DNA from: an uncultured Syntrophomonadaceae bacterium
GTDB lineage: Bacteria > Bacillota > Dethiobacteria > DTU022
Assembly: GCA_964596845.1 (NCBI GenBank)
Contig: CAZQVX010000003.1
Location: 1-24,643, forward strand
Length of the DNA stretch: 24,643 nucleotides
Direction of reading: 5' to 3'
The position numbers and the translations under genes were made by a program. Below, one piece after another: positions 3,348 through 18,086 of the stretch. How positions within the stretch are numbered: the first letter of the stretch is position 1; the number at the start of each line of letters is the position of its first letter. The notes under the pieces were generated by a model that was not told the DNA's origin, ran no database searches, and was given only the letters and a program-made list of their open reading frames with translations.

Positions 3348-3377
3348 ATTATAAACGTCTTTGGGCGGCCGTTGCAA
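3348..3377 (-). promoter_or_regulatory. sigma70/sigmaA promoter of the activase gene
   Basis: TTGCAA (3377-3372), 18-nt spacer, TATAAT (3353-3348); predicted +1 at about 3341-3340. Confidence 0.7.
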
Positions 3378-3579
3378 GAGCAAAAACACGCGGTGCGAGA
3401 AGTCCACCCGGCGAAGAAGTGATCCGCCCGCGGCAGGAAGCGGCCTCGCTCAACTTGAATATAATGTATGGCAGCGGCTGAGCAGCAGGTATTACGCCGG
3501 CAGTGTGACGGCTTCTGAGTAGATTTTGTTTTTCTGTTCAGCCGGCAGTATAAACATCAAAGGCGAGGGAGGAATCAGG

Positions 3580-4791
3580 ATGCAATCATGGTCCGAGGTA
3601 GGGCTCCTGAAAATGGTTTTACTTCACCGTCCGGGCGCAGAACTGTTGAATTTAACCCCCCGTTATCTGAATGAGCTGCTTTTTGATGAAATCCCCTGGC
3701 TGGCCAAAGCCAGGGCCGAACACGACAGTTTTGCCAATATCCTGAGAGAACAGGGAGTTCAGGTTTTCTATGTGGATCAATTGCTGTCTGATATTTTGAA
3801 AGACCCCGGGGTAAAAAGCGAGCTAATTAAAAAAAGGATGGCCAGTTCGCTGACCGGGGCGGAGGTGGCCGGAACGGATGATCCGGTTTACAATTTTTTA
3901 AATGGGACGGAGCCCGAACAGCTTTCCCGGACGATTATTGCCGGACTGCGGAAACATGAGGTCCAGCATCTAAAAAAATACACAACCCTCAGGGATCTGA
4001 CCGTGGACAGCTACCCCTTTTGCCTTGCGCCCCTGCCTAATATGTACTTTACCAGGGATCACGGGGCCATGATCGGCAAAAATATGCAGATCAGTACCAT
4101 GTTTTTGCCGGCGCGCCGTCGTGAAACAATTTTGCTGCGGTATATCTGCAAGCACCATCCCATTTTTGAGGGAGTGGAGCTGACTTCAGAAGAAGAAATC
4201 CCTTACGGCATCGAAGGCGGCGACATGGCGGTTCTGAACAAAGACAGCCTCATGATCGGACTCAGCGAACGGACCACCGAAAAGGCCATCGAATGGGTCG
4301 CCCACAACTACCTCGTCGAAAAAGAAATGGTCAAACAAATTGTCGTTGTGCAGATCCCCTCCCGAAGGGCCTATATGCACCTTGACACCGTATTTACCAT
4401 GGTCGATCGAGATAAATTTCTGATGTATCCCGGAGTCAAAGATGATCTTTACGTTTACTGGCTGGAAAGGGGAGGCGAGGGCAGGGTTGCCGCCTCCAGC
4501 GGTTACAGCCTGCAGGGCGCCCTGGGCAGGGCGCTGGGCTTGAAGCAGGTTGAGATCATCTGTCCCTCGGCGGACGATGAGATCACCGCCGCCCGGGAAC
4601 AGTGGAACGACAGCGACAACACCCTGGCCATTAAACCCGGTACCCTGATCTGTTACGATCGCAACGAGAAGACAAATGATACATTGAGAAAACACGGCAT
4701 CGAAGTCATCGAAATCGAAGGATCGGAACTGGTCCGCGGGCGCGGCGGACCGCGCTGTATGACCCTGCCCCTGAAGAGGGAGGATATTTAA
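3580..4791 (+). CDS. arcA: Arginine deiminase
   Basis: SEVGLLKMVLLHRPG, LLFDEIPWL, PLPNMYFTRD, IEGGD, MHLDTVFTMVD, EQWND, ELVRGRGGPRCMTLP, with catalytic Asp/Glu/His/Cys present. SD GGAGG before ATG 3580. Confidence 0.95.
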   Translation: MQSWSEVGLLKMVLLHRPGAELLNLTPRYLNELLFDEIPWLAKARAEHDSFANILREQGVQVFYVDQLLSDILKDPGVKSELIKKRMASSLTGAEVAGTDDPVYNFLNGTEPEQLSRTIIAGLRKHEVQHLKKYTTLRDLTVDSYPFCLAPLPNMYFTRDHGAMIGKNMQISTMFLPARRRETILLRYICKHHPIFEGVELTSEEEIPYGIEGGDMAVLNKDSLMIGLSERTTEKAIEWVAHNYLVEKEMVKQIVVVQIPSRRAYMHLDTVFTMVDRDKFLMYPGVKDDLYVYWLERGGEGRVAASSGYSLQGALGRALGLKQVEIICPSADDEITAAREQWNDSDNTLAIKPGTLICYDRNEKTNDTLRKHGIEVIEIEGSELVRGRGGPRCMTLPLKREDI

Positions 4792-4837
4792 GCCCGGCCC
4801 CTTGAACGGTAGAAAATGGGGGGCAACATACCCTGAT

Positions 4838-6718
4838 CTAGGTCCAGATCCGGCCCGCCTCTTCGGCAAGATCCAGCCTGTTTAGCCGGTCCTTTGTGGC
4901 TACGCCTTTTTCCGGATCCATCTCCATCAGCCTGTAGAAGGACGCTTTCATCTGGTCGAATTCGATCCTGATGCCTGCCGGTTCGCCGTCCCGCGCCGGC
5001 TCGAGCATACGCGGAGTGAGGCTGTCGTCACCGGCCCTGAAGCCCAGGCGATAGTTCAGACATCTTTTCAGGTGGAAGATCCGGGCGCCCGCCTCCATGA
5101 GGGTGGCAACCGTCAGGCCGTAACCGGCCGCCGCATTGAGCAGATCCGCCATGTCCTGGATGGTCAGAGAGCGGTCGGCATACTGGCAGAGGCAGGCGCT
5201 GTTCTCGATCATTCCCAGCGCCGCTGCCAGGACCATGGTTTCGGGCTTTTTCTCATGCGTCATCGCCTCGAGGTCGAATTCAAAACCAATTTCCGGGTAG
5301 TTGCAGGCCCCTGTTTCCATGAAATGCATCGCCGTGGCTACGTGGCAGGCGCCGCGGGGGCTCACCGCATAGGCCAGGGCATGACCATGTCCGCCTCCGC
5401 GGGGATCATGCATGGGCGCCTCCAGGCCCTTGCTCTGGGCGGTGTAGGCCAGGGCATCATTTCCAATTTCCGCCGCCGCCCGTGCGCTGCCCCGGGCCAG
5501 GAGCCTGCCCAGAGACGTTTTCTTTGCGGCAATAGCAGGAAGCACTGTATTTACTACTGTTTCCATATCACCCCACCGGAGGGCGGTCCCGCCCGTTTGC
5601 CCGGGAGTGAGGTGGCCTTTTTCCCAGGCCTCCATAGCCCAGGCGATGGTGGCGCCGGCAGTGATTGAATCCATCCCCAGGTCGTTGCAGAGATAATTTG
5701 CCTTGCAGGCGGCCGCCAGATCGGCGGAGTCCAGCATGGTGCCGAAAGCGGCAATCGTTTCATACTCCGGACCGGGGCTTTCAGGGATAGCGTAGGGGCC
5801 TTCATCGACTCGAACCATCCGCTTGCAGCCCACGGCGCAATAGGCGCATGTCCGCCTCCCCGTGAGGTATTTTTCACTAAGGGTGCTGCCCGTCAGGGCC
5901 TCGCCCATCTCCTCATTGAAATTGGACTGCCAGTTGCGGATGGGTACATCTCCCGTGTAGATATGCCCCTCCAGGTTTCCCGCCGAGCCGAAGTCGCGCA
6001 GCACCATGGAGATCATTGCTTCTCTGATGCCGGGCGTAACTTTTTTGGCCAGCTCCTTGAGCCCCGTTTCATCGGCAAAACGGGGCTCAACATGTTTTTT
6101 GCCGGTAATGACGATTGCTTTAATCATTTTTGATCCCATTACCGCACCCAGGCCGCACCGGCCAAAAGCGTGGTGGGCATCATTGAGGATGCAGGCATAG
6201 AGGACCGCATTTTCCCCGGCGGGCCCGATGGTGAGGGCGGTGGATTTTTGACCGTAGCGCTCTTTCAATCTCCGCGAGGTTTCGTAGTTGCCTTTACCCC
6301 AGAGATCCCGGGCGTCTTCGATGGTTACGCTTCCCTCATCGATGAGCAGGCAGGATGGGGCGCCGGCTCTCCCGGTGATGAGCAGCCCGTCGTATCCCTG
6401 ATGTTTCAGGGCCGGTGCAAAATAACCCCCGCAGGAGGAGTCGGCAAAGGTCCCGGTGAGCGGGGAGCGGGCCGCGGCGCAGGTCCGGCTTGCGCCGGAC
6501 ATCCGCAAGCCCGCCAGCGGCCCATTTATGAACATAAGCAGACTTTCCGGTGAGAAAGGGTCAAGGGAGAAGTCCGCCCGGTCGCTGTAGATCTTTGCGG
6601 CCAGGCCGCTGCCCCCGATAAAACGGGTGTAGACCTCCCCGGGGCAGTACAGCGCCCCCACAGAGGCGGCTGTAAGATCGATCACCGCGATGACGCCGGT
6701 ATTGCCCTTCACATCCAA
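4838..6718 (-). CDS. Aldehyde:ferredoxin oxidoreductase (tungstopterin AOR family)
   Basis: RSPLTG..SSCGG, GRCGLGAVMGSKMIKAI, CAYCAVGC (Fe-S ligands), PEYET, DLGMDSI, EAPMHDPR and a C-terminal Cys in ACLCQY. Confidence 0.93.
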   Translation of the reverse strand: MDVKGNTGVIAVIDLTAASVGALYCPGEVYTRFIGGSGLAAKIYSDRADFSLDPFSPESLLMFINGPLAGLRMSGASRTCAAARSPLTGTFADSSCGGYFAPALKHQGYDGLLITGRAGAPSCLLIDEGSVTIEDARDLWGKGNYETSRRLKERYGQKSTALTIGPAGENAVLYACILNDAHHAFGRCGLGAVMGSKMIKAIVITGKKHVEPRFADETGLKELAKKVTPGIREAMISMVLRDFGSAGNLEGHIYTGDVPIRNWQSNFNEEMGEALTGSTLSEKYLTGRRTCAYCAVGCKRMVRVDEGPYAIPESPGPEYETIAAFGTMLDSADLAAACKANYLCNDLGMDSITAGATIAWAMEAWEKGHLTPGQTGGTALRWGDMETVVNTVLPAIAAKKTSLGRLLARGSARAAAEIGNDALAYTAQSKGLEAPMHDPRGGGHGHALAYAVSPRGACHVATAMHFMETGACNYPEIGFEFDLEAMTHEKKPETMVLAAALGMIENSACLCQYADRSLTIQDMADLLNAAAGYGLTVATLMEAGARIFHLKRCLNYRLGFRAGDDSLTPRMLEPARDGEPAGIRIEFDQMKASFYRLMEMDPEKGVATKDRLNRLDLAEEAGRIWT

Positions 6719-6724
6719 CCCCCC

Positions 6725-7165
6725 TTATTTTTTGCGGATGATTTTATCTTCGTAACCCATCTCCGCGAGTACCACGGGGAAAAGCTGAAAAGCCGGCCGC
6801 ACCACCGGCAGCAGCTTCAGCATAGCCGTAACCTTGCCGCCCTGTTTGATGATCCCCTTGGTAATGCCGGCCATGGGGTTTTCCAGGCCATGCCAGAAGC
6901 TGTGGGAGTGATCGGCCGGCTGTTTTGACCAGACGTCCTCTTTCAGCTCACAGGGCCCCAGGTAGTAACTGCCGTAGTAACCTTCCTTTGCGGGCGGGTT
7001 TTTCAGGTCAATGGTGATCTCAGTGTCGGGATTGGTGTAGATGAACTTGATGATAATCCCCGCCCTGGACATCTTGGTCCCAATTTTTTCATCCTGAAGT
7101 ACCCGATCCATAAAATAACCGTAGATCTCATACAGTTGATCAGCATCCCGATAATACTTGCTCAT
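6725..7165 (-). CDS. Stand-alone SCP2 (sterol carrier protein 2)-like lipid-binding protein
   Basis: 146 aa; pattern IKFIYTNPDTEITID..ADHSHSFWHGLENPMAGITKGIIKQGGKVTAMLKLLP resembles the SCP2 C-terminus (FWxGxxNPxxAxxxGxIKxxG); SD GGAGG. Confidence 0.72.
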   Translation of the reverse strand: MSKYYRDADQLYEIYGYFMDRVLQDEKIGTKMSRAGIIIKFIYTNPDTEITIDLKNPPAKEGYYGSYYLGPCELKEDVWSKQPADHSHSFWHGLENPMAGITKGIIKQGGKVTAMLKLLPVVRPAFQLFPVVLAEMGYEDKIIRKK

Positions 7166-7196
7166 GATTTTCCTCCATTCCGGTCCCCATATTATT

Positions 7197-8354
7197 CTAG
7201 CGCTGGCTGAACCTACGCTCGAAGATCATCCCGGCAATACCGATTTTGAGCATTTCGATAGTGCCTCCGGCGACACCCCAGGCCTTGGCGTCGCGATACA
7301 TCCTCTCCAGGGGCAATTCGGTGCTGTATCCATAGCCGCCAAAGATCTGCATGGCCAGGTTGGTCACCTCCACAACCATTTCGTTGGCAAAGGCTTTGGC
7401 CATGGATGCTTCGTAAATGGAGGGGAGCCCTCTGCCGGCGCTGTTGATAGCCCGGTAGACCAGGAGCCTGGCTGCATCAAGTTTTGTGGCCATGTCCACG
7501 ATCATGAACTGCACCGCCTGGCGGTTGCAGATCTCCTTGCCGAATGTTTTCCGTTCCCTGGCATAGGAGATGGACTCCTCCAGGGCCCCGCCGGCCACGC
7601 CGAGGCACATGGCTGCGTTGCCGCATCTCTCGATATCAAAGGTGAGCATCAAGTTGGCGAAGCTTCCTGCGGGGAGCACCAGGTTGCTTTTCGGTACCCT
7701 GACGTCATCGAAAAAAAGATCACAGGAGGGCATTCCGCGCAGTCCCATGAAAGTCTCCTGTTTGCCGAAGGTGAAACCGGGCATCCCCTTTTCTACGATG
7801 AGGGCGCCGATACCCCTGTAACCCTGGATATTGTCAAACCGGGTGTAGACCATGTAGTGGCTGGCGTGGCCGGCGCCGGTGATAAAGGCCTTGCTCCCAT
7901 TGAGGATGTAGCAGTCGCCGTCCTCGAGGGCGTTTGTGCTCAGTGCGGTGAGATCTGAGCCCGCATCCTGTTCAGTCATGCACACAGAGACACTGTGCTT
8001 GCCGCTGCAGACGCCGGGCAGGATCCCTTTCTTTTGTTCCTCCGTGCCGAAAAAACCGATCACCCTGGCCGGGCCGACGTTTGATTCGAAGATCGGCGCG
8101 GCGATGAGGGGGCTGAATTTCGCCAGCTCTTCAATGCAGAGGATGGCGTTGATCGAGGGCTGATCGCCACCGCCGTACTCAGAGGGCAGGGTCATCCCCA
8201 GCAGCCCCAGTTCGGCATAAAGATCGAGCAGGTGAAAGGGGAACTCGCCCGTTTGATCCACTTGCCTGGCCAGCTCTTTAAAGTTTTCCTTCCGGCCCAT
8301 GGACTTGATCGTCTCCAGCAGCATCTTTTGCTCTTCATTCAGGTTAAAATCCAT
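7197..8354 (-). CDS. Acyl-CoA dehydrogenase (IVD/LCAD-type catalytic Glu position)
   Basis: GLLGMTLPSEYGGG, CMTEQDAGSD, YILNGSKAFIT, FDDVRVP, AMQIFGGYGY..LERMYRDAK; SD AGGAGG. Confidence 0.95.
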   Translation of the reverse strand: MDFNLNEEQKMLLETIKSMGRKENFKELARQVDQTGEFPFHLLDLYAELGLLGMTLPSEYGGGDQPSINAILCIEELAKFSPLIAAPIFESNVGPARVIGFFGTEEQKKGILPGVCSGKHSVSVCMTEQDAGSDLTALSTNALEDGDCYILNGSKAFITGAGHASHYMVYTRFDNIQGYRGIGALIVEKGMPGFTFGKQETFMGLRGMPSCDLFFDDVRVPKSNLVLPAGSFANLMLTFDIERCGNAAMCLGVAGGALEESISYARERKTFGKEICNRQAVQFMIVDMATKLDAARLLVYRAINSAGRGLPSIYEASMAKAFANEMVVEVTNLAMQIFGGYGYSTELPLERMYRDAKAWGVAGGTIEMLKIGIAGMIFERRFSQR

Positions 8355-8387
8355 CTTGTTCCTCCTGTAACCTTTTTGCGGTAATGG

Positions 8388-9755
8388 CTAAATCAGTGAG
8401 GCAAGTTCCCTGATGCTATCCAGGGTTTCCATTTTCATAACCAGATCGATAACCCGGTCCACCTTTGCCGGATCTCTTTCCCCCGAAAAATGCTGAACCT
8501 TTGCGGCCAGATCACCTTCTGTCATGGGGTCGCGAGGGTCGCCCTTGGGGATTTCCACTTCACTTTCCAGAGTTTTGCCGTTCGTCATTTTCACTTCCAC
8601 CCGGCTGGCGGTGAACTCGGGGTAACGGGCCGAGATCTCGTCGTCGGGAACAACATTGACCCGGCTGGTGAACTCCATCAATTTCCCGTCCTTCAGCCTC
8701 TGTTCAGTGAGCTGTGCCGGCCCCAGTTCTCCGTCAAAGATGCAGGCGGCGACAACGTAGGGGAGGGAAAACTGGGCGGAAACGAAGCTGCCTGCCTCAG
8801 GAACCCCCTTGCCCACGGCGATGAGAGCCATGTTGTAGGTGTAGACATTGACGGATGCTATCTCCGCAGGGGTAAGACTATACTTCCTGACGAGCTCCAA
8901 TGCGGCCTGCGCCGCTCCATGGGTATGCCGGCAGGCGGTATATGGCTTGAAGTAAATATCGTTGATGGCATAATGATGACCAAGCTCATCGGTAAGTTTC
9001 TTCAGGTTGGAGCCCATAGGGTTGGTGATTTGGATAAAACCGCCCCCCAGTGCCGAACCCTCGATGATCTCCGGACACCCCGTGATTCCTTTACCGGCCA
9101 GGCCTGCAGCCATAATCCCCGCGCCGGCGGCCTGGCCGCCCTGGACTATCTTGATCGTGTAGCCGCCCATGAGCTGTTCGGCCATGGAGAGGGGCAGCAA
9201 ATAGCCGGCATTGCCCAGGGCATTAACCGTGGTATCGGCATCATAGCCGTACAACCTGGCCGCAGCGGCGGCGGCGCCGAAAGCGCCGCAGGTGCCTGTA
9301 GGCAAAAAGCCGGAGACGGTGTGGCCTGGATGGACGGCTGCGGCAACCCTGCCGGCCACCTCGTAGCCGGCGATGATCGCCTCGAGCAGCCTGTCTCCTC
9401 CGGCATTCTCGGCTTCGGCAATAGCGAGCGCCGCAGGAATTACCGCCACTCCGGGATGGTTACCGCCGAAGCGGTAGCCGTCCTGGGCCTCGATCGCCTC
9501 TCCGGTGGTTCCGTTTAAGAATGCGGCCTGCTGCAGCCCTGTTTTGAAACCGCACCCCAGGACGGTGGCCGTCTCCGTTCCGCCCAGGGGGCGGATATAC
9601 TCCACGATCACCCGGGTAGCCTCCAGCTCCAGCGAGCCGTAGACATTGGCCACGTAATCGAGAAGGCATAACCTGGCTTTTCGGGCAACTTCCGCGGGAA
9701 CCGATTTAAGGGACAGGCCGGTGGTAAATTCAGCAAGCTCTCTCGTTGGGCCCAT
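8388..9755 (-). CDS. MmgE/PrpD family protein
   Basis: ARLCLLDYV, AAFLNG, NHPG (H101), IIAGYEVAGRV, KPYTACRHTH, AQFSLPYVVA, IPKGDPRDPM; SD AGGAGGAG. Confidence 0.9.
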   Translation of the reverse strand: MGPTRELAEFTTGLSLKSVPAEVARKARLCLLDYVANVYGSLELEATRVIVEYIRPLGGTETATVLGCGFKTGLQQAAFLNGTTGEAIEAQDGYRFGGNHPGVAVIPAALAIAEAENAGGDRLLEAIIAGYEVAGRVAAAVHPGHTVSGFLPTGTCGAFGAAAAAARLYGYDADTTVNALGNAGYLLPLSMAEQLMGGYTIKIVQGGQAAGAGIMAAGLAGKGITGCPEIIEGSALGGGFIQITNPMGSNLKKLTDELGHHYAINDIYFKPYTACRHTHGAAQAALELVRKYSLTPAEIASVNVYTYNMALIAVGKGVPEAGSFVSAQFSLPYVVAACIFDGELGPAQLTEQRLKDGKLMEFTSRVNVVPDDEISARYPEFTASRVEVKMTNGKTLESEVEIPKGDPRDPMTEGDLAAKVQHFSGERDPAKVDRVIDLVMKMETLDSIRELASLI

Positions 9756-9776
9756 CACAATCTCCTCCTTCTCTTT

Positions 9777-10577
9777 TTACACGTAGCCGCGTCTTTCGTA
9801 GATCTGGATCATTCTGTTGGGATCGAGCACTTCGCGGATAAGATGCAGCTCTTCCGCGGTGGGTGGCTCCGTTTCATGGACATCAACGGCCACCTTCAGA
9901 TCCCAGGGGGTCAGGCTGATCACTTCATCGACAGTGGTGTCGGGGTGGTAGGTGGCCAGATAGGCCTCCCTGGTGTGGGGATCAAAGCGCATCACTGCCT
10001 TGTTGGTGATGATCACCTCCGGGCCTGACCCGGCGGGAAACCCCCATTTCTCACGGCTGCCCGGACCGTCCAGGTAGCCCGGTGTGGTGATGAAATCGAC
10101 CCTTTCGGCCAGGGTCCTGGAGTTGTGGACGGCAATGATGAGGGTGCGTTTGGCCAGGGCGCCGATAGGGTTGGCGCCTCCTGAGCCCGGTAAACGGCTT
10201 CTGGGGGCGCCGTAATCTCCGATCACCGTGGTATTGATGTTGCCGAATTTGTCAACCTGGCTTCCCGCCAGAAAACCTACATCCACCCAACCTCCCTGGA
10301 GAAACATGCCCATCACTTCTATGAGCCCCCCGATCATGGCTGCTCCCGGGTTAAGACAGGGGTCGCCCACGGAGAGTGCCGGCCTGAGGGGGCGGGCATC
10401 GTAAACCCCCGATTCCTGCATCAGCCTGGCGTTCGGGGCATGAGTGTGGACGGCGATATTGGCGGCCATGGAAGGAAATCCCGTACCCACGACGACAATA
10501 TCGCCATCACGTATCTCTCTGGCGCCACAGCAGGCCATCAGCTCCGGTTTGATGTAATCCATTGGATCCATGCTCAT
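9777..10577 (-). CDS. Family I CoA-transferase subunit B (glutaconate CoA-transferase GctB-like)
   Basis: VVVGTGFP, QESG with catalytic Glu (10413-10415), GFLAGSQVDKFGNINTT, RLPGSGGA, VDFITTPG. Start may be 10586 or 10577. Confidence 0.9.
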   Translation of the reverse strand: MSMDPMDYIKPELMACCGAREIRDGDIVVVGTGFPSMAANIAVHTHAPNARLMQESGVYDARPLRPALSVGDPCLNPGAAMIGGLIEVMGMFLQGGWVDVGFLAGSQVDKFGNINTTVIGDYGAPRSRLPGSGGANPIGALAKRTLIIAVHNSRTLAERVDFITTPGYLDGPGSREKWGFPAGSGPEVIITNKAVMRFDPHTREAYLATYHPDTTVDEVISLTPWDLKVAVDVHETEPPTAEELHLIREVLDPNRMIQIYERRGYV

Positions 10578-10592
10578 CAGCGTCACCCCCGG

Positions 10593-11528
10593 TTAGTAGG
10601 AATAGGATACCGGGTAACTGTAATCGAACCCGGCTTTCAGGGAAGAGAATTTTTCATAGCCATACTTCTTGATGAAATGCTCCGTGTACTGGGCGCGGTT
10701 CTTGACCCCGTAAACCCACTCGTCAAGAAAGTTTTCAAAGCCTTCTACCGTGTTAGAGGCCTGCTGGTAGTCATAACCGTAGCTCAGATCGACATCATAG
10801 AAACCGGGGGCGTACCCCGGGTGCGCGCCAAATGGCTCCTCTGTCACCGCCACAACCTTGAATCCGGGGACGATGGTCCGCGAGGGGTCTTTCCCGATCA
10901 CTTCCCGGCTGACGATGCGCTCGCAGCTGACGATGACCTTCCCTGAGGCATTGGCTCCCCACCTGCAGTCGCCGCCGATGCCCCACATTTGTGCATTTCC
11001 CTCTTCGTCGGCCTGCTGGACATGGATAATGGCTACATCCGGCTTAAGGGAAGGTACGAGCATGGTAGGGTTGCCGTCGAAGGGCGAATCGATGATTTTA
11101 AACTTGCCCTCGCCCATGAAAGAGCTCACTTTCATCAGGTCGGTGCCTGCCATATCCTTAACAGGGACAAAGGGCATCCCTGTCGCCCCCGCCATGAGCA
11201 TCAGGGGCAGCGACAGGTTGGTGTATTCCTCGATTTCAATTTTGTGGGGTATGCCTTTTTCGATGGATCTGCGGTAACAGCGGGCCAGCCCGTAAAGGCC
11301 CAGGGAAATAAATGTGGAAATAAAACGTTTCACGCATCCTGCGCCGATGAGCATGTCAAAATCATCGGCGGCATTACTGCGGGTGATGGTCAGATCGCTT
11401 TTTTTCCGGCGAATGATCTCGTGGATGGCGGCGAAGGGCGGTCTGGCAATATAACCGCCGATAAAGAGAAAATCGCCGTCATGGACAAACTTTTCTACAG
11501 CCTCAGCGGTGGTCATCACCTTGCTCAT
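10593..11528 (-). CDS. Family I CoA-transferase subunit A (GctA-like)
   Basis: MSKVMTTAEAVEKFVHDGDFLFIGG..PFAAIHEIIR, KPDVAIIHVQQADEEGN, EPFGAHP; SD GGAGGG before ATG 11528. Confidence 0.9.
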   Translation of the reverse strand: MSKVMTTAEAVEKFVHDGDFLFIGGYIARPPFAAIHEIIRRKKSDLTITRSNAADDFDMLIGAGCVKRFISTFISLGLYGLARCYRRSIEKGIPHKIEIEEYTNLSLPLMLMAGATGMPFVPVKDMAGTDLMKVSSFMGEGKFKIIDSPFDGNPTMLVPSLKPDVAIIHVQQADEEGNAQMWGIGGDCRWGANASGKVIVSCERIVSREVIGKDPSRTIVPGFKVVAVTEEPFGAHPGYAPGFYDVDLSYGYDYQQASNTVEGFENFLDEWVYGVKNRAQYTEHFIKKYGYEKFSSLKAGFDYSYPVSYSY

Positions 11529-11594
11529 CTGCATCCCTCCCGGGGTAATCAATCCATCCTTCCGGTTCGGATTGATCCGTTCTTGTTCATCCTT

Positions 11595-13985
11595 TCAGCC
11601 GCCCTGCTCAAACTCAGTGCGGCTGATGATCTCGTCCTGGGCAATTTCGCTCAGATCGATAAACTCCGCTGAATAACCGCTGACCCTGACAAAGAGGTCG
11701 CGGTATTTCTCGGGCTCTTTCTTTGCATTTTTGAGGGTTTCCGTATCGACCATGTTGAACTGGACCTGCATCCCGCCGCTGTCCATGTAAGCGCGGATCA
11801 GGTGGGCCAGGTGGGCGCTTTTCATCTTTTTTCCCTGGAAGCGCATGTTCAGGTTGGCCCCGTTGTAGAGCCGTTCTAGGGGCAGTTTCACTGCTGAATT
11901 CATCACTGCCGTGGGTCCGCTTACGGCATTCCCCGTTGTAGGCGTGATCCCGTTGCCCAGCACATCACCGGCGGACCTGCCCTCCGGGGTGGCTCCGGTA
12001 AAAGCGCCGAAAGAGATGTGAAAACCTACAGAGAAGATGCCCGGCCAAAGGAATCCGCCGCGGAAATTGTGGTGGGCGCCGATGACATCGCAGTAATGTT
12101 CAGCCACCTTCTTCGCCAGCGCATCCACGTCGTCGCAGTCATTGCCGTACTTGGGCACCCTGTTCAGCATGTACTGGCGCCACTTTTCCGAATCGTACCA
12201 GTCGTCTGTAAGCATTGCCGTCAGTTCGGACATTGTCAGGACCTTGTCTTCGAACACAGCCTTCTTAACGGCATAAAGGCTGTCGACGACATTGGCGAAG
12301 CCCATGAGCTGGACGCCGGTGGAGTTGTATACTGCTCCGCCCCGGGTCAGGTCAAGGCCTTTCTCGAGGCAGCCCGCGATGACCGCCGAGGCGAAGGGAG
12401 AGGGGACGTTGTCGGCGATGGCTTCATCGAGGATGCACATGCCCCTGGCTATCTGGCCTGCAAAATGGCTCAACTGCCGGTCATAGGCGTCCCAGAGATT
12501 TTCGAAAGAGGTGAATTGGGCCGGATCGCCCGTTTGTAAGCCCGACTGATAACCGAAGATCTGGTCAATACCATTGCTCAGCGCGAACTCGACGCACTTC
12601 AGGCCGTTGAACTGCACGGCAAAGGTGGAGCCGAAAGTCTTGCCCTGGGCATTCGGCTCAAGGCATCCCACAATGCCGTAATTGCGTGCATCTTCCAGGG
12701 TATGACCGCTGTGAAGCAGTGTTTTCACGATGGCTTCGTCGTTGAAAAAGTGCAGCAGCACCCCGTCCCGGGCGTAGTCGACAGCTTTCATCAGAAAGTC
12801 TTCGGGGGATTTGGGGGAGAGGCGCACCCCGAAGTTGGGCTGCACGGTGCGCACATCGCTGAAGGCGTCGAGACCGATATAGCTCAGCTCATTGGTGGCG
12901 TCATTCCCCTCGGTGTTGACGCCTCCAACAATGGTGTTCTGGGTCGTCTTGCCCTGGGTCCCCTCGCCGCCCGGGGTGAAAGCCTCTTCCAGCAGGTTCC
13001 AGATTTCATTGGTCTTGATGTAGAGCAGCGCAAGCAGTTCCCGGGCCTCCGCAGGGGTGAGGCGCCCGGCCTCTTTATCCCGGCGGTAGTAGGGATAGAG
13101 GATCTGGTCGATCCGGCCAAGGGATATGGAATTGCCCCCTGATTCGATCTGTGAGGTGAGATGGATAAAGTAGACGCTCTGGACCGCTTCGTGGAAGCTC
13201 TCTGCGGGATGTTCAGGCACGCGGGTGCAGACCCGGGCGATCTTCATCAGTTCCGCAGCGCGCCTTTTATCTTTTTCCTGATGGGCCATCTCGCGGGCCA
13301 GGATGCTGTAGCGGCGGGCAAAGGAGATCACTGCGCTGCAGGATCGGATCACCGCCTCGTAGAACATCTTTTTGCCGCTGTCTGCCGGGGAATTGCTGCA
13401 CCCGGCGAGCCTTTCACGCGCTTCACCAATGATGCCGCCTAGTCCTGCGGAGAGCACCCTGTCATGATCGATGGTGAAATGGCCGATCCCATAGGTAATC
13501 TCCAGCATCATGGTGAAAACATACTTATCCATATCCGCCAGCAGATCGGGCGGCATGCGGGATTCCATCACATCCTCTACGGTTTTCCCCTGCCAGAAGG
13601 GCAGGATCTCGCTCTTAAGCTCCGCTATCTCAGCGGGGCTGATCAGGGCCTTCTGCACCGCCCGGATCCCCAGGGATTCAAGGTCCCCCTCTATCCACCT
13701 CGATTTATTTTCCGGAAAGAGGGGCGCCCCCTTTAGCTTGCTTGTACGGCACCCTACAATAAGCTCGTCATCTCTGATGATGGGGGTGATGTTGTTTAAA
13801 ATGTGCTCAAAAGCCAGGCTCATCCGCTCCAGGGGATCCCGGGCCCAGTTTTCTTTCATCGATTGGGTCAGATATCTGGCTCTTTCTATGCATACTTCCA
13901 TGGGAGCGTCAATAATTTTCCATCTGAGTCGACCGACTCTGGTGTTTGGATAACCGGCGTCGTGAAAAGCGGCCTGGTGTTCCAT
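11595..13985 (-). CDS. Glycyl radical enzyme, eliminase (dehydratase/lyase)-like clade, substrate unknown
   Basis: Single-Cys loop YGIVGCLEP (C442, E444; ORF-track numbering), glycyl loop LFVRVSGYS (G771), DELIVG, PKYGND, GATPEGR. TGATG overlap with the upstream SDR puts the start at 13985. Confidence 0.96.
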   Translation of the reverse strand: MEHQAAFHDAGYPNTRVGRLRWKIIDAPMEVCIERARYLTQSMKENWARDPLERMSLAFEHILNNITPIIRDDELIVGCRTSKLKGAPLFPENKSRWIEGDLESLGIRAVQKALISPAEIAELKSEILPFWQGKTVEDVMESRMPPDLLADMDKYVFTMMLEITYGIGHFTIDHDRVLSAGLGGIIGEARERLAGCSNSPADSGKKMFYEAVIRSCSAVISFARRYSILAREMAHQEKDKRRAAELMKIARVCTRVPEHPAESFHEAVQSVYFIHLTSQIESGGNSISLGRIDQILYPYYRRDKEAGRLTPAEARELLALLYIKTNEIWNLLEEAFTPGGEGTQGKTTQNTIVGGVNTEGNDATNELSYIGLDAFSDVRTVQPNFGVRLSPKSPEDFLMKAVDYARDGVLLHFFNDEAIVKTLLHSGHTLEDARNYGIVGCLEPNAQGKTFGSTFAVQFNGLKCVEFALSNGIDQIFGYQSGLQTGDPAQFTSFENLWDAYDRQLSHFAGQIARGMCILDEAIADNVPSPFASAVIAGCLEKGLDLTRGGAVYNSTGVQLMGFANVVDSLYAVKKAVFEDKVLTMSELTAMLTDDWYDSEKWRQYMLNRVPKYGNDCDDVDALAKKVAEHYCDVIGAHHNFRGGFLWPGIFSVGFHISFGAFTGATPEGRSAGDVLGNGITPTTGNAVSGPTAVMNSAVKLPLERLYNGANLNMRFQGKKMKSAHLAHLIRAYMDSGGMQVQFNMVDTETLKNAKKEPEKYRDLFVRVSGYSAEFIDLSEIAQDEIISRTEFEQGG

Positions 13986-14830
13986 CAAACAGTCCCTCGC
14001 TTTACCTTTATATCCATGTGGCTCACAAGGATGGCATCACGCAAGCCCCCCGGGATGAACCGGTTCAGCCAGAGCAGAAAACTGCTCTGGAAATCGATCT
14101 GGTTAAAAAAGTGCACTTTATCAGACATGATCACCTGGAAGATCCTTTCCGCGGCGGCTTCCGGGTCAGGCGCCTTTTTAATGAGCACTTTGTCCCGCTC
14201 GATGAACCTGCCGGCGCGCTCGCGATAGGGGGAGCCCTCCGGCGGGAGGACATGAATCTTGGCGGCAAAACTGGTGGATACCTGAGCCGGCTCGATGACC
14301 GCCACATCTATCCCGAAATGCTCCACCTCGTATTTGATGGACTGCATCAGCCCCGTGACGGCGAATTTGCTTGCGGTATAGATGGATTCGAAGGGGAAAG
14401 GGACGCGGCCGACAAGCGAAGACATGGCGATCATTTTGCCCCGGCGCTGCTCACGCATGGATGGAAGGAAGGCCTGGAATGTGGCCGCCGCACCGATGAC
14501 GTTGATCTCCAGGCACCGGAGCGCTTTTTCCAGGTCGGCCTCCTCGAAGGGGCTGAAAAAACCGATCCCTACGTTAGAGAGCACAGTATCCACATGCCCG
14601 TACTTTTCAAGGACCCTGTCACGAAAATTCAGGATCCTTCGGCGATCGGTAATGTCGAAAGCTTCAAGCAGGTGCTCACCGCCAATTGCGGACAGCTCTG
14701 CTTCAAGTGTGGATAGTTTTTCGGAATCCAGATCAAATCCCGCAACGCTGCACCCGGCCCGGGCGAGTTTTCGGGCTGTAACCCGGCCCATCCCATCGGC
14801 CAACCCCGTAATCACCACAACCTGCCCCAC
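13985..14830 (-). CDS. Classical short-chain dehydrogenase/reductase
   Basis: TGLADGMG (TGxxxGxG), acidic GFDLD after beta2, MSS, YTASK (YxxxK), VAVIEP; SD AGGAGG before GTG. Confidence 0.92.
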   Translation of the reverse strand: MGQVVVITGLADGMGRVTARKLARAGCSVAGFDLDSEKLSTLEAELSAIGGEHLLEAFDITDRRRILNFRDRVLEKYGHVDTVLSNVGIGFFSPFEEADLEKALRCLEINVIGAAATFQAFLPSMREQRRGKMIAMSSLVGRVPFPFESIYTASKFAVTGLMQSIKYEVEHFGIDVAVIEPAQVSTSFAAKIHVLPPEGSPYRERAGRFIERDKVLIKKAPDPEAAAERIFQVIMSDKVHFFNQIDFQSSFLLWLNRFIPGGLRDAILVSHMDIKVKRGTV

Positions 14831-14852
14831 AAAAACACCTCCTTTTTAGGTC

Positions 14853-15845
14853 CTACCGTTTTGTCCTGTGAAACCGGTACCATTCCGCCAGTTGCTTCAT
14901 GGACGCCATAAAGTCCGGATAGAGCAGGTTGTAACCGGCGGCTTTAAGCTTGCTGTTATCCACCACATAGTCATCACAGAGGTATCTCACCGCATCGGAT
15001 TCAAGGTCCGGGATTTTATTTTTTCCCGCCGCGGAAGCCCCATCGATGGAGGCGACAATTTTAACGAGCCAGAGAGGGAGGTGCAGGGTGGGGCGTTTGC
15101 TGCCGAAGGCCTCTGCGGCGGCGATAAGCGCCGCCTTAACTTCCGGATGCGTATCTTCGGCGAGGTTATAGGCCTGGCCTACCGCCGGGTCCAGGCGGGA
15201 GAGATACTCTGCTGCCGCAGCTACATCCTCAACCCGGATGTTCGAAAGCAGCTGTGTGCCCTTACCGGGAATGCCGGTAATGCTCGTGGGCCGGGAGAAA
15301 GCTTTGCCCGCCCCGTCATTGCAGCCGGGCCCGTAGACGGTGCAGGGGCGCAGAATCACTGCCGGCAGGCCTTCTTTGATCCGCTTCCAGACGATATTCT
15401 CCCCATCGCGCTTGCTCCTGCCGTAGGCATCCACAGGCTCGCGCGGTGAATCCTCGGTGAAGGGGAGCCCTTTGTAGCGGCCATATACACTCGTGGAAGC
15501 GACATGGACAAAGCGTTTTACGCCGTGTTCCAGGGCCAGCGCTGTGATCCTTTCCACGCCTTCCACGTTGGTGGGGTAGAGCCCCGCGTAGGGTGTGGAG
15601 AAGTTGCAGATTGCTCCGAGGTGAAAGACGCGTTCAACGTGATCCCGAAAGAGGGGGGGAAGGGTCTCTGGTTTTGTCAAATCGGCAGGCATGTAATCCA
15701 CGCCAAGGTTATCAAAAAATGAGAGATCTTCGCGGGGCCTCGAGCTAGCGCGAACCCGCACCCCCTTCTTTACCAGGTGCTCCACCAGGTGGCGCCCCAT
15801 GAAACCCGCCGCGCCGGTGACCAGGGCGAGGCCTTCAAATTCCAC
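14853..15845 (-). CDS. Extended SDR / NAD-dependent epimerase-dehydratase (3beta-HSD/HpnA-like)
   Basis: TGAAGFMG, HLGA, NVEG, FVHVASTSVYG, YGRSK, ILRPCTVYGPG. GTG 15845 has SD AGAGAGGG; alternative start 15866. Confidence 0.9.
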   Translation of the reverse strand: MEFEGLALVTGAAGFMGRHLVEHLVKKGVRVRASSRPREDLSFFDNLGVDYMPADLTKPETLPPLFRDHVERVFHLGAICNFSTPYAGLYPTNVEGVERITALALEHGVKRFVHVASTSVYGRYKGLPFTEDSPREPVDAYGRSKRDGENIVWKRIKEGLPAVILRPCTVYGPGCNDGAGKAFSRPTSITGIPGKGTQLLSNIRVEDVAAAAEYLSRLDPAVGQAYNLAEDTHPEVKAALIAAAEAFGSKRPTLHLPLWLVKIVASIDGASAAGKNKIPDLESDAVRYLCDDYVVDNSKLKAAGYNLLYPDFMASMKQLAEWYRFHRTKR

Positions 15846-15897
15846 AGCTATTCCCTCTCTTTCCACAGCGAAGGTCGGAGGACGGCGTTATTTGCAT

Positions 15898-16431
15898 TTA
15901 TCCCTCGTTGTTATTCTTGATTTCTTCGGCCGCATGACGCAGCCAGCCGATGTAGGCTTCGTTCAACGTTACTCCCAGCTGGGCCAACAAGTTAACATAA
16001 ACACCTTGCCTGCTCCACCGGTCCCGGTTTGCCTTTCTCCGGGCCAGCTGTTTTTCATGCAGGGTAATCTGATCTTCGATGATTTGCAGGGCTCTTACGT
16101 CATCGCTAAAACCGAAAAAAGCGAACTTCAGCAGAAAGGAATCCCTCAGGATCATCGGCCGGATGGGATCTTGGGCCACCCAGCGGGAGAATTCTTCCCG
16201 CCCCCTTTCCTCAATGGTATAGAGTTTCTTTTGCGGACCGCCTTTTTGGGAGGGAGACAGTTCTTTCATGCGGATAAAACCTTCTTCTTCCAAGGCCTTC
16301 AGGTTGGGGTAGATCTGCCCAAAGTTGATTGTCCACATATGGCCGAAGTTGTTTTCAAGATGTTCCTTGATGCGATAGCCATGCATGTCGGAGTAATGAA
16401 GCAGCCCCAGTATTGCATATTTTATAGACAT
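15898..16431 (-). CDS. PadR family transcriptional regulator
   Basis: ILGLL..MHGYRIK..WTINFGQIYPNLKALEEEGFI..KKLYTIEERGREEF plus a helical C-terminal domain; SD GAAGGGGG. Confidence 0.93.
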   Translation of the reverse strand: MSIKYAILGLLHYSDMHGYRIKEHLENNFGHMWTINFGQIYPNLKALEEEGFIRMKELSPSQKGGPQKKLYTIEERGREEFSRWVAQDPIRPMILRDSFLLKFAFFGFSDDVRALQIIEDQITLHEKQLARRKANRDRWSRQGVYVNLLAQLGVTLNEAYIGWLRHAAEEIKNNNEG

Positions 16432-16452
16432 CCGGAATTTGCCCCCTTCCCA

Positions 16453-16471
16453 GTATATATAAACTATATAC
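16453..16471. promoter_or_regulatory. Putative PadR operator, GTATATA-N5-TATATAC
   Basis: Perfect 7-bp inverted repeat overlapping the -10 box and predicted +1 of the padR promoter. Confidence 0.65.
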
Positions 16472-16491
16472 GTAACTTACACAATTGTCAA
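16463..16491 (-). promoter_or_regulatory. sigma70/sigmaA promoter of the padR-GRE operon
   Basis: TTGACA (16491-16486), 17-nt spacer, TATAGT (16468-16463). Confidence 0.8.
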
Positions 16492-16626
16492 TGGATTTTT
16501 AATTGGCTGATAGCAGGGCTGCTGCGCTGTGGGTCTTTTGAGCGAGCTGGTGCAGGAATTATCTACTTGTTCAAGAATTAATTATATAGTAGAAACTATC
16601 ATCTATTTCAAGAAAGGGGATGGGCC

Positions 16627-17646
16627 ATGTCTGTAGTTAAGGTGTTGTTTTGGGGCCTCGGGGCCATGGGCAGCGGGATGGCGAAAATGCTGTTGTCCAA
16701 GGAAAACCTGCGCATCGTTGCGGTTATAGACCGGCGCCCGGAAAAAGCAGGCCGGGATGTCGGAGAATTGATCGGTTCTGACCCTCTGGGGGTAAAAGTA
16801 ACCGCCGATCCGGAGGAAGCTTTCAGCTGCAGGCCTGATCTGGCGCTGCTAGCAACTGATTCTTTCGTCAAGGATGTATTTCCGCAAATAAAATATGCTC
16901 TCAGGAAAAATGCTGATGTGATCACCATTGCTGAAGAGATGGCTTATCCCTGGTCGGCCTCGGAGGAGCTCGCGGGTGAGATTGACCGCATCGCTCGCAA
17001 ACAGGGAAATACCGTTCTGGGCACAGGGATCAATCCCGGTTTTATCCTCGACACTCTGATCATCGCTCTTACAGGTATCTGCCGTAAGGTGAGCCACATT
17101 CATGGCAAAAGGGTGAACAATCTTGCGCCTTTCGGGCCGACGGTGATGCAGATGCAGGGGGTGGGCGTTACCCCCGATGAGTTTGCCGAAGGGTTGACTT
17201 CCGGCGAGATCGTGGGCCATGTGGGATTCAAGCAGTCCGCTATGCTCATCGGCCGGGCTCTCGGCTGGGAAATCGAAGACGTGGTCGAGAAGAGAGAACC
17301 GATTATTTCTAAGGTTGAGCGGAAAACAGAGTATGTGCATATAGCCCCGGGAGATGTGGCCGGGTGCCGTCATACTGCCAGGGTTTACTGCGGGGGTAAA
17401 GAGGTCCTCTTCCTGGAGCATCCCCAGCAGGTCAGCCCGGAAGCAGAAGATGTCAGGACAGGAGACTACATCACGATTGACGGGGATCCGCCGCTCAAAC
17501 TGGCCATCGAACCGGAGATTCCCGGCGGCGTCGGCACCGTGGCTATCGCCGTAAATATGATTCCCCTGGTTGTAAACGGCCCCCGCGGGCTGGTGACGAT
17601 GGCGGATCTGCCTGTCCCGCGCAGACTGCCCGACTTGATCAGGTAG
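16627..17646 (+). CDS. ord: 2,4-diaminopentanoate dehydrogenase
   Basis: [53 protein letters not shown]; first gene of the ornithine cluster. Confidence 0.93.
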
Positions 17647-17710
17647 GGCGGATTTTATTCGCCCGCAGGATCGGGCTCCGTTGTTCGCCCTATAACCGCC
17701 CTGTTTTTCT
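17645..17710 (+). terminator. Possible intrinsic terminator or attenuator structure after ord
   Basis: AGGGCGG (17645-17651) pairs with CCGCCCT (17696-17702), followed by GTTTTTCT; shorter competing hairpins lie inside. Confidence 0.3.
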
Positions 17711-17777
17711 ACATAGAGAGAAAATATGAAAGTCCTCCCACAGTAATGAGCCATAATATAGTTGTGAGGTGATCGCT

Positions 17778-18086
17778 ATGGCCCCAAAATGCCTTGAGGG
17801 CGCCTGGGTAGAGATCCATTACATTGTTTTGGACCCCGCATCACGCCCCGGGGATCTTCCCCCCGAAACCCGCAAGGTCCCCCTGGAATGCCGGATGAAC
17901 GGCTGGGCGCTCAGCGCAAAAGAGATCGGCCGGGAGGTGGAGATCCGGACCCCGGCGGGGCGCATCGTCAAAGGCGCACTTACCCGGATCAATCCCGGTT
18001 ATGAGCACACTTTCGGACTCGCGGTGCCGGAGCTTTCCGGTATCGGCGCAGAGCTGCGCAGCTTGCTGAAGGAAGGGGAGCGCTGA
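17778..18086 (+). CDS. ortA: 2-amino-4-oxopentanoate thiolase alpha subunit
   Basis: WVEIHYIVL..R...P.ETRKVPLE..NG..GRIVKG.L..INPGYEHTFG; SD GAGGTGA; TGATG coupling to ortB. Confidence 0.92.
   Translation: MAPKCLEGAWVEIHYIVLDPASRPGDLPPETRKVPLECRMNGWALSAKEIGREVEIRTPAGRIVKGALTRINPGYEHTFGLAVPELSGIGAELRSLLKEGER

Follow-up and report, generated by a model that had tools for sequence, protein, structure and literature searches.

Gene Content and Organization of the Locus

The stretch of DNA analyzed here (the window; 24,643 nt, positions 1 to 24,643 of contig CAZQVX010000003.1, GenBank assembly GCA_964596845.1, from an uncultured Syntrophomonadaceae bacterium) carries ten co-oriented genes on its minus strand (4838–16431), among them a gene for a glycyl radical enzyme (GRE). 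Genes were assigned from the open reading frame listing together with Pfam and NCBIfam scans. The first gene, padR (15898–16431), encodes a 177-aa regulator with PF03551 (9.9e-18) and PF10400 (Vir_act_alpha_C) domains. It is followed by an extended short-chain dehydrogenase/reductase (SDR; 14853–15866, 337 aa) of the Epimerase/3Beta_HSD/NAD_binding_4 type, in which the GxxGxxG and YxxxK motifs are present, by a classical SDR (13985–14830, 281 aa; adh_short, 5e-45), and by the GRE itself (11595–13988), which has 797 aa when read from a TTG start; the database protein begins at the ATG at 13985. Next come the alpha and beta subunits of a CoA-transferase resembling GctA (10593–11552, 319 aa; 183 bits to 1POI_A) and GctB (9777–10586, 269 aa; 189 bits to 1POI_B), a divergent MmgE/PrpD-family protein (8388–9758, 456 aa; PF03972, 189 bits, and PF19305, 135 bits), an acyl-CoA dehydrogenase (ACAD; 7197–8354, 385 aa) with all three ACAD domains of Pfam, and a 146-aa protein (6725–7165) placed in the SCP2 fold by its predicted structure and remote homologues. 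The last gene of the operon encodes a protein of the aldehyde:ferredoxin oxidoreductase (AOR) family (4838–6718, 626 aa; AFOR_N, 236 bits, and AFOR_C, 341 bits).

These ten genes and their families agree with a preliminary description of the same DNA, made from its letters alone, and the spacing is even tighter than the roughly 0–70 nt given there. From padR to the AOR gene the gaps are, in order, 31, 22, -4 (or -1), 42, 6, 18, 33, 31, and 6 nt, a range of -4 to 42 nt; in the sequence TGATG the stop codon of the classical SDR overlaps the start of the GRE gene. The single promoter proposed ahead of the operon was also recovered. A sigma-70-like site, TTGACA-17-TATAGT (16463..16491, minus strand), lies upstream of padR, matches 11 of 12 consensus positions, and is the best promoter-like site in the 15 kb from 2000 to 17000; the number of such sites in this region (5 found vs. 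7.5 expected) is not above chance. An inverted repeat, GTATATA-N5-TATATAC (16453..16471), whose 7-nt arms are 100% complementary, overlaps the -10 box. The -35 box, the -10 box, and the palindrome are conserved in three related loci (L001, L002, L068), and the palindrome is a candidate PadR operator. The gene arrangement as a whole is far beyond chance, because the gene order recurs in dozens of unrelated metagenome bins.

Family and Active Site of the Glycyl Radical Enzyme

The GRE matches both PF02901 (PFL-like, 670 bits) and PF01228 (Gly_radical, 92 bits) and scores above the cut-off of TIGR01774, the model of the PFL2/glycerol dehydratase subfamily (707 vs. 678 bits). Its sequence VRVSGYSAEF aligns with the Gly763 loop of glycerol dehydratase (GDH), which makes Gly770 the radical glycine. 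The closest PDB matches are GDH (585 bits) and propanediol dehydratase (562 bits), and identity to the B12-independent GDH 1R8W is 41%. An unnamed "glycyl radical protein" of 816 aa (9RCO, 516 bits) is the third-best solved relative; benzylsuccinate synthase, alkylsuccinate synthase, and PFL are far weaker PDB matches. Among the NCBIfam models for characterized GREs (HypD, CutC, HpfG, HpsG, PflD/YbiW, IAD, HPAD, and PFL), no equivalog cut-off was reached, with scores of 551 vs. 1000 for HpfG, 544 vs. 1100 for HypD, and 502 vs. 1050 for CutC.

Eliminases and isomerases of the GRE superfamily are defined by a Cys-x-Glu motif, and in their mechanism Cys433 abstracts hydrogen, Glu435 deprotonates the C1 hydroxyl, and His164 protonates the leaving C2 hydroxyl (PMC13450708, a 2026 review). 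The motif is present in the window GRE as Cys441-Leu-Glu443 and is invariant in 120 homologues. Gly770, Cys441, Glu443, His169, and Ser286 make up the complete eliminase set, conserved in the same 120 sequences, with His169 and Ser286 corresponding to His164 and Ser282 of GDH. The eliminase assignment of the preliminary description is therefore upheld by the Cys-x-Glu motif and the His164 equivalent. A reading as an X-succinate synthase, or bbs-like system, had been prompted by Smithella hosts of related clusters and by the CoA-transferase, ACAD, and SDR genes; it was rejected, as the Cys loop carries the Cys-x-Glu motif, and benzylsuccinate synthase and MasD are the weakest matches (274–279 bits).

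GDH of Clostridium butyricum (1R8W/1R9D) and propanediol dehydratase of Roseburia inulinivorans (5I2A) belong to the same superfamily and the same eliminase class, sharing with the window GRE the Gly loop, the Cys-x-Glu motif, and the equivalents of His164 and Ser282. The GRE differs from GDH at five pocket positions, all of them replaced invariantly in the 120 homologues: Asn156 by Leu161, His281 by Asn285, Tyr339 by Thr348, Asp447 by Phe455, and Tyr640 by Phe651. Two further changes, Trp445 to Ser and His446 to Thr, are likewise invariant across the family. We take Tyr339, Asp447, and Tyr640 to be the residues that surround the third hydroxyl of glycerol in the 1R9D structure, and count Asn156 as well among its presumed binders. 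Because these presumed C3-OH-binding positions are all replaced, the GRE would be expected to keep diol-dehydratase chemistry while accommodating a non-polar group at the place of the glycerol C3-OH.

With 41% identity, and with Thr348, Phe455, and Phe651 at the presumed C3-OH positions, the GRE is not an ortholog of the B12-independent GDH. The changed distal pocket and the equivalog scores below cut-off extend this to the other characterized small-substrate GREs, the outcome on which the preliminary description had staked its proposal. Judged from its sequence, the GRE is a new family within the eliminase class.

An Orphan Protein with a Predicted SCP2 Fold

Sequence searches with the 146-aa protein gave no Pfam or NCBIfam match even at E = 10 and no PDB match. 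It has 411 close homologues, all of about 146 aa and all named "hypothetical"; identity among the best 120 of the 411 is 72–100%, and the polar residues D85, S87, H88, H92, E95, and N96 are invariant. An AlphaFold2 model (pLDDT 84.5) has helices packed on a five-stranded sheet, and Foldseek aligns it with SCP2 folds in each of its 46 highest-ranking PDB hits (best E 3e-7; TM-score 0.6–0.76), which include SCP2, the SCP2-like domain of MFE-2, UbiJ, and C-terminal domains of alkyl-sulfatases. A profile search of 1.84 billion representatives returned 444 relatives, and 29 of 40 remote homologues (27–40% identical) match PF02036 directly, with a best E of 2.6e-12. The name "SCP2-like" in the preliminary description thus holds through predicted fold and transitive homology, not through a direct Pfam match.

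Some remote relatives are fused to other enzymes, either C-terminal to iron-dependent alcohol dehydrogenases (Fe-ADH; P0282, P0304, P0378) or N-terminal to E1 dehydrogenases dependent on thiamine diphosphate (P0268, P0330, P0331). To our knowledge, neither of these fusion architectures has been described. They link the 146-aa sub-family to alcohol and aldehyde metabolism.

The predicted fold matches that of known SCP2 domains (MFE-2 1IKT, SCP2, UbiJ, and alkyl-sulfatases), and the locus resembles MFE-2 in that an SCP2-type protein is associated with SDR-type dehydrogenases. The 146-aa family differs from known SCP2 domains in being narrow and more conserved than usual, with invariant polar residues and no direct Pfam match. 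On the modeled structure, it is an orphan family specific to this cluster with an SCP2 fold. Its high conservation would be compatible with a lipid carrier and with a subunit of the GRE, and leaves both possible.

Conservation of the Gene Neighborhood

Related loci were sought in one genome per species. The scan returned 79 loci, of which 72 encode a GRE at least 50% identical to that of the window over at least half its length (mostly 60–83%); all 72 are metagenome bins. Neighbors were counted by tblastn with the window proteins, using only loci with enough flank, and called genes were also used. The nearest GREs (82–83%) are from Syntrophomonadaceae. Other hosts include Smithella and other Syntrophales, Spirochaetota, Leptospiraceae, Dehalococcoidia, Actinomycetota, Binatia, SAR324, and Desulfomonilia and Desulfobacterales (Desulfobacterota), among others, and gene order is kept across these phyla at 55–90% amino-acid identity.

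The most frequent neighbors are the classical SDR (50/54 loci; median identity 67%), the 146-aa protein (48/53; 74%), the extended SDR (48/54; 69%), and the ACAD (47/53; 70%). Both CoA-transferase subunits (median identity 76% for alpha and 78% for beta) and the PrpD-like protein (60%) were each found in 42 of 53 loci, and a PadR gene upstream of the GRE in 39 of 54 (57%). The full eight-gene core is present in the same order in 29 of the 39 loci with both flanks. The neighbors are missing altogether from three loci only, and the GREs there are the most divergent (52–62% identity). The preliminary description had named loss of these neighbors among GRE homologues as an outcome that would refute it, and this is clearly not what we see.

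The AOR gene, found in only 15 of 48 loci (median identity 64%), is an optional module, and the invariable core consists of the two SDRs, the GRE, and the SCP2-like protein. Minimal clusters hold these four genes only (L040, L058, L127), and in three of this minimal kind the 146-aa gene precedes the GRE gene (L039, L042, L077).

Module Swaps and Accessory Genes

Variant clusters replace several of the enzymes by unrelated ones. In the Smithella-type order, padR, the two SDRs, and the GRE are followed by an arylesterase/SGL hydrolase, the 146-aa gene, AOR, a major facilitator superfamily (MFS) transporter, ACAD, and an AMP-forming ligase (AMP-ligase), with neither the transferase nor the PrpD-like gene. 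Another variant has the AMP-ligase and ACAD ahead of the GRE and an enzyme of the Fe-S/FMN enoate-reductase type after AOR. Several clusters that lack AOR carry an NAD-dependent aldehyde dehydrogenase (ALDH), with or without an Fe-ADH, and two loci have both AOR and ALDH (L005, L126). The AMP-ligase scores best against a long-chain-fatty-acid CoA ligase subfamily (418–429 bits vs. a cut-off of 476), with 344 bits to a steroid-24-oyl-CoA synthetase model; a ligase of the fatty-acid type points to a hydrophobic acid intermediate.

Since ALDH replaces AOR, the ligase replaces the transferase, and ACAD is retained, an aldehyde, an acid, and an acyl-CoA are the likely successive intermediates. These non-orthologous replacements are, in our view, the strongest indirect evidence for them, and they support the chain from aldehyde to acid to acyl-CoA to ACAD that the preliminary description had put forward. 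The ALDH and Fe-ADH of variant clusters score best, below cut-off, against betaine-aldehyde and choline dehydrogenase models. A diol with a quaternary ammonium group was considered on this ground and set aside as a minor possibility, the scores being sub-cut-off and the models generic attractors.

Ester hydrolases are variably attached, with an arylesterase-type gene in six loci and a GDSL lipase after the activase gene in L052. A dedicated MFS transporter occurs in variant clusters (L052, 12389–13627; L032, L035, L050, L067, L080, L081) and is 82–100% identical across lineages; its best models, which match weakly, are conjugated bile-salt and L-lactate carriers, a hint that a carboxylate may be transported. 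A DUF362 protein (473 aa) is encoded between the CoA-transferase subunit genes in two loci (L064, 13408–14829; L004, 8466) and downstream of the cluster in a third (L044, 18713). In spirochaete clusters a small ThiS/MoaD-like open reading frame follows AOR (19247–19483 in L083–L085; also L051 and L018); none follows AOR in the window.

The Short-Chain Dehydrogenases and the Downstream Enzymes

Neither SDR can be placed closely by similarity. The best curated models for the extended SDR (HpnA, thioester reductase, and OleD) are all far below cut-off, and PDB sequence searches with both SDRs gave generic matches only. The chain in the preliminary description assigned them no role, although they are core members.

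The CoA-transferase has the two subunits of a family-I enzyme of the glutaconate type and the catalytic Glu of the beta subunit in an ESG motif, where lmqESGvyd aligns with iivESGlmd of 1POI_B. The ACAD scores best against AcrC, an acryloyl-CoA reductase (353 bits vs. a cut-off of 640), and against 3-sulfinopropanoyl-CoA desulfinase, also far below cut-off. It has Gly at the position of Glu376 in MCAD and a Glu in the motif FDIER, which is invariant in 39 homologues; this Glu may occupy the position used in enzymes of the isovaleryl-CoA dehydrogenase type. The AOR protein scores 337 bits against Pyrococcus furiosus AOR (1AOR), and its translation contains a CxxCxxxC motif (TCAYCAVGC). Its earlier label as a tungsten enzyme ("W-AOR") is supported to the level of AOR family membership, given by the AFOR_N and AFOR_C domains.

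The PrpD-like protein was left without a function in the earlier chain. Its nearest relatives are iminodisuccinate (IDS) epimerase and the Bacillus subtilis "IRG1" homologue. In the numbering of the IDS epimerase 2HP0, it keeps His99, Lys198, and Lys266, the catalytic His and enolate-stabilizing Lys residues of MmgE/PrpD enzymes. All known members of this family act via the C2 enolate of a 1,4-dicarboxylate, and in the two-base epimerases Tyr145 is the second base and His85 and His150 are carboxylate ligands (PMC12290011). Because Glu, Thr, and Leu replace His85, Tyr145, and His150 (in at least 37 of 39 cluster homologues), the PrpD-like protein is not an ortholog of the known epimerases, and belongs neither with methylsuccinate isomerase nor with IDS epimerase. 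The same replacements suggest that it probably binds an acid without a second carboxylate.

In methylsuccinate utilization, a CoA-transferase, an ACAD, and an MmgE/PrpD protein form a triad in which the MmgE/PrpD member isomerizes the free acid so that the stereoselective transferase can accept it (Gonner et al., 2025; PMC12290011). The methylsuccinate module Ict-Mcd-Msi of the pseudomonad itaconate cluster has this triad in common with the window operon (PMC12290011). It differs in that the window transferase is of family I (Gct-type) and not family III, and the PrpD-like protein, without Tyr145, His85, and His150, is not an Msi ortholog. In our loci the PrpD-like gene always accompanies the transferase (42/53 loci) and is absent where the ligase is used; this strict co-occurrence fits a protein that prepares free acids for use by the transferase. 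The protein could also catalyze a PrpD-type beta-elimination.

Activating Enzyme and Flanking Genes

GREs require a radical S-adenosylmethionine activase, and the window contains one at 2414–3349 on the minus strand (311 aa; TIGR02494, 306 bits vs. a cut-off of 174), with a promoter-like site of its own (3377..3348, minus strand). The gene is outside the ten-gene operon, 1.5 kb away, beyond an arginine deiminase gene (3526–4791, plus strand) that is convergent with the AOR gene and separates the activase from the operon. We pair the activase provisionally with the operon GRE because that is the only GRE in the window. An activase gene is adjacent to the cluster in three other loci only (L022, L030, L052), where it follows the 146-aa gene; in L052 it occupies 18509–19423. 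In the metagenome scan, relatives of the window activase are at most 42% identical and are located beside other GREs. Its neighborhood was dropped as a clue to the substrate, there being no close ortholog and the relatives adjoining unrelated GREs.

Directly downstream of the activase, at 1196–2359 on the minus strand, is a gene for a Ca-dependent phosphodiesterase of the PI-PLC-C1 type with an N-terminal membrane anchor. It too was discarded as a clue, in this case to a lipid, since no such gene is near the cluster in any of 85 other loci. On the other side of the operon, divergent from padR, a complete gene set for oxidative ornithine fermentation occupies 16627–24592 on the plus strand (2,4-diaminopentanoate dehydrogenase, OrtA, OrtB, the S and E subunits of D-ornithine aminomutase, a MutL-like reactivase, and a racemase). 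The host suggested by this set and by the arginine deiminase is an amino-acid-fermenting Firmicute.

Proposed Pathway and Candidate Substrates

We consider it fairly probable that the locus is a PadR-controlled catabolic operon built around an uncharacterized family of oxygen-sensitive glycyl-radical 1,2-eliminases of the diol-dehydratase type, whose aldehyde product is oxidized to an acid, converted to a thioester, and passed to the ACAD. From the gene families, catalytic residues, conserved neighborhood, and module swaps we infer a reaction, an order of steps, and the nature of the substrate as follows. The activase would install the radical on Gly770, and Cys441 would abstract hydrogen from the carbinol carbon of a vicinal diol or a 2-alkoxy-alcohol. 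Glu443 would deprotonate the carbinol hydroxyl while His169 protonates the neighboring -OH or -OR leaving group, giving an aldehyde. Beyond its two reacting carbons the substrate is expected to be hydrophobic and to be handled by the SCP2-fold protein. The aldehyde would be oxidized to the acid by AOR in this genome, and probably by an NAD-dependent ALDH in some other lineages; the acid would be activated to its CoA thioester by the Gct-type transferase here and by the fatty-acid-type AMP-ligase elsewhere, after which the ACAD would act on the thioester.

The preliminary description had proposed a hydrophobic substrate, and the SCP2 fold, the Fe-ADH fusions, and the hydrophobic replacements in the GRE pocket make this plausible. 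Our preferred candidate, which is tentative, is glycerol with a hydrophobic group on O-3 or C-3, such as an ether of the 1-O-alkylglycerol type or a long or bulky terminal 1,2-diol. Two of the substrates suggested earlier appear less suited to the active site. A sphingoid base is argued against because the proton-donor His is kept and the position of CutC Asp216 has no new acidic residue, a combination that would favor an -OH or -OR leaving group over an amine. A polyol tail such as that of bacteriohopanetetrol would be at odds with the loss of the residues presumed to bind the glycerol C3-OH. Taken as a whole, the preliminary description was sound on the eliminase, the conserved neighbors, the chain of intermediates, and the plausibility of a hydrophobic ligand; AOR, a step of its chain, turned out to be an optional module, and the chain gave no role to the SDRs or the PrpD-like protein.

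Several points weigh against the proposed pathway and its hydrophobic substrate. Metagenome bins are the source of every homologue. The SDRs are the GRE's most faithful partners and are without a demonstrated place in the chain, and the PrpD-like protein is unexplained by it. The reading of the pocket depends on GDH Tyr339, Asp447, and Tyr640 being the C3-OH binders in 1R9D. An SCP2-like protein 72–90% identical across phyla, with invariant polar residues, would be unusual for a passive lipid carrier. The Gct-type transferase is nearest to an enzyme for dicarboxylates or short acids, and the best curated models of the ACAD are for short, branched, or cyclic acyl-CoA, so that neither by itself points to a long-chain lipid. 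Lastly, the MFS transporter of variant clusters is nearest to carboxylate carriers (bile-salt and lactate models), and the substrate could thus carry a carboxylate.

A more specific version of the pathway is the catabolism of glyceryl ethers from ether lipids, which we regard as unlikely but worth stating in full. Esterases or phosphodiesterases would first strip the lipid, and the GRE would dehydrate the 2,3-diol of a 1-O-alkylglycerol to a 3-alkoxypropanal, or could alternatively eliminate the sn-2 alkoxy group of a diether. Oxidation by AOR or ALDH would yield a 3-alkoxypropionate, a 4-oxa fatty acid. Either CoA activation and desaturation by the ACAD, or a PrpD-type beta-elimination on the free acid, would place the ether oxygen on a beta-carbon, and collapse of the ether would release a fatty alcohol together with a C3 unit (acrylate/acryloyl-CoA or malonate-semialdehyde-CoA). 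Much of the locus fits this scheme. In the GRE, hydrophobic or smaller residues stand at the presumed third-hydroxyl positions, with the machinery of a diol dehydratase intact, the SCP2-fold partner is present, the AMP-ligase of variant clusters is of the fatty-acid type, and the ACAD is kept in nearly all variants. Lipid hydrolases are variably attached to the cluster, and the host lineages are mostly fatty-acid oxidizers. MmgE/PrpD enzymes use the C2 enolate of a free acid and PrpD itself performs a beta-elimination (PMC12290011); the PrpD-like protein of the operon has lost the two second-carboxylate ligands (His85 to Glu, His150 to Leu). Cleavage of C-O ethers by GREs has precedent in YbiW and PflD (PMC13450708). 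Against this, the argument is one of inference throughout. The scheme has no need of the two SDRs, barring a speculative inversion at sn-2, the cluster has neither a hydratase nor a thiolase, a Gct-type transferase acting on a long-chain oxa-acid would be unprecedented, and no other locus has the PI-PLC-like gene of the window near the cluster.

Were the glyceryl-ether scheme correct, and we rate the chance as low, a GRE fed by an SCP2-type lipid chaperone would provide the first route by which the glycerol ether bond in membrane ether lipids is cleaved independently of oxygen. Its targets could be bacterial alkylglycerols and plasmanyl lipids, and possibly archaeal diethers or betaine-lipid backbones. 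The likeness to alkylglycerol monooxygenase (AGMO) would then be one of reaction, as both would cleave the 1-O-alkyl ether of an alkylglycerol. AGMO, described as the sole known enzyme to cleave this ether, is a membrane di-iron enzyme that depends on O2 and tetrahydrobiopterin; the window system is oxygen-independent and unrelated to it in sequence.

In a different proposal, a hydroxylated lipid acid or an aromatic diol is imported by the MFS protein, trimmed by the SDRs, dehydrated by the GRE, and degraded by beta-oxidation. Substrates of this kind would include carboxylate-bearing polyhydroxy compounds, such as a cutin-type dihydroxy fatty acid or the side-chain diol of a steroid or bile alcohol, and a lignin-derived arylglycerol or arylpropanediol. 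We think it improbable, though it would account for several separate similarities: the best model of the transporter is a conjugated bile-salt carrier, the enoate reductase of L082 scores 530 bits against BaiCD, the ligase scores 344 bits against the steroid-24-oyl-CoA synthetase model, and 3beta-HSD/HpnA is the type of the extended SDR. Phenolic or hydrophobic acids are the typical ligands of PadR regulators, the Smithella-type clusters include an arylesterase, and aromatic residues abound in the GRE pocket. All of these matches, however, are far below curated cut-offs, in families with few characterized members. Steroid and bile-acid nuclei have no vicinal diols, and an internal diol would be dehydrated to a ketone, leaving AOR or ALDH pointless.

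Alternatively, the GRE could be a long-sought anaerobic ether-cleaving enzyme, a lyase for 2-alkoxy-alcohols such as polyethylene glycol (PEG), glycol ethers, and alcohol ethoxylates. The enzyme would then work in the manner of CutC or IslA, the leaving group being an alkoxide, and acetaldehyde (or acetone) would be set free along with a shortened alcohol; the SCP2-like protein would hold the surfactant tail, and the SDRs, Fe-ADH, and AOR or ALDH would oxidize the released alcohols. The Cys-x-Glu eliminase set and the proton-donor His are retained, many homologues are from digesters and sludge, and alkyl-sulfatases with surfactants as substrates likewise contain an SCP2 fold. That anaerobes cleave glycol ethers and PEG through an activity resembling diol dehydratase is known from physiology, with the gene unassigned (PMC8125441, citing Schramm and Schink, 1991). 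We nevertheless hold this to be quite improbable, given that the cluster is equally common in bins from peat, groundwater, marine sites, and hot springs, where selection by synthetic ethoxylates is unlikely, that the module of transferase, PrpD-like protein, and ACAD would have no role for acetaldehyde, and that the conserved Ser286 and His169 are closer to diol dehydratase.

An ordinary glycerol or 1,2-propanediol dehydratase, or another GRE for a small polar substrate with the 146-aa protein as its structural small subunit, is very improbable. In its favor, GDH (585 bits) and propanediol dehydratase (562 bits) are the best PDB matches, the 146-aa protein is extremely conserved and has invariant polar residues, as would fit a complex partner, and the betaine-aldehyde/choline dehydrogenase scores of the variant ALDH and Fe-ADH would agree. 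Against it, identity to GDH is only 41%, none of Asp447, Tyr339, Tyr640, and Asn156 is kept, every equivalog model scores below cut-off, and the gene context is unlike any dha or pdu locus, the window operon having SDR, SCP2-like, Gct-like, PrpD-like, and ACAD genes instead and, by Pfam, no genes for 1,3-propanediol dehydrogenase, microcompartment shell, or phosphotransacylase.

Comparison with Known Systems and Significance

Among described pathways, a close parallel to the proposed eliminase reaction is that of HpfG, the dehydratase for 2,3-dihydroxypropane-1-sulfonate (DHPS), in which a GRE dehydrates a C3-substituted glycerol analogue and the aldehyde is then oxidized, from 3-sulfo-1,2-propanediol to 3-sulfopropionaldehyde to 3-sulfopropionate (PMC13450708). 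HpfG is also the second-best NCBIfam model for the window GRE, at 551 bits, far below the cut-off of 1000. The window operon differs in having no sulfonate-handling genes, and the mapped positions of the distal pocket are hydrophobic, not charged.

The preliminary description knew of no characterized GRE locus with this gene set, and our literature search likewise found no description of it. The 2026 review of GREs contains none with the gene context of the operon and no SCP2-type small subunit; the terms SCP2, sterol, "aldehyde ferredoxin", and Syntroph- are absent from its text, and "lipid" appears only in two book titles of the reference list (PMC13450708). A paper on limonene concerns a different GRE. 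In our view the locus represents a new family of eliminases, one whose partner and pathway are also of a new type.

Anaerobes rely mainly on GREs to attack chemically resistant substrates, and with each family that was assigned a pathway came to light, as for choline, hydroxyproline, isethionate, DHPS, and anhydro-sugars. The family described here is highly conserved (60–83% identity) in uncultured anaerobes of many phyla, with digesters, peat, groundwater, and marine and spring sediments as their sources. Its genes form a compact, traveling module of eight to ten with clear swaps, and its active site predicts a substrate unlike that of every characterized eliminase. Should that substrate be a glyceryl ether or another lipid derived from membranes, the pathway would explain how ether lipids and related necromass are mineralized without oxygen, and would matter for sediment carbon turnover and for how lipid biomarkers are interpreted. 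Even with a mundane substrate, the locus is a ready, testable gene set for a new GRE reaction.

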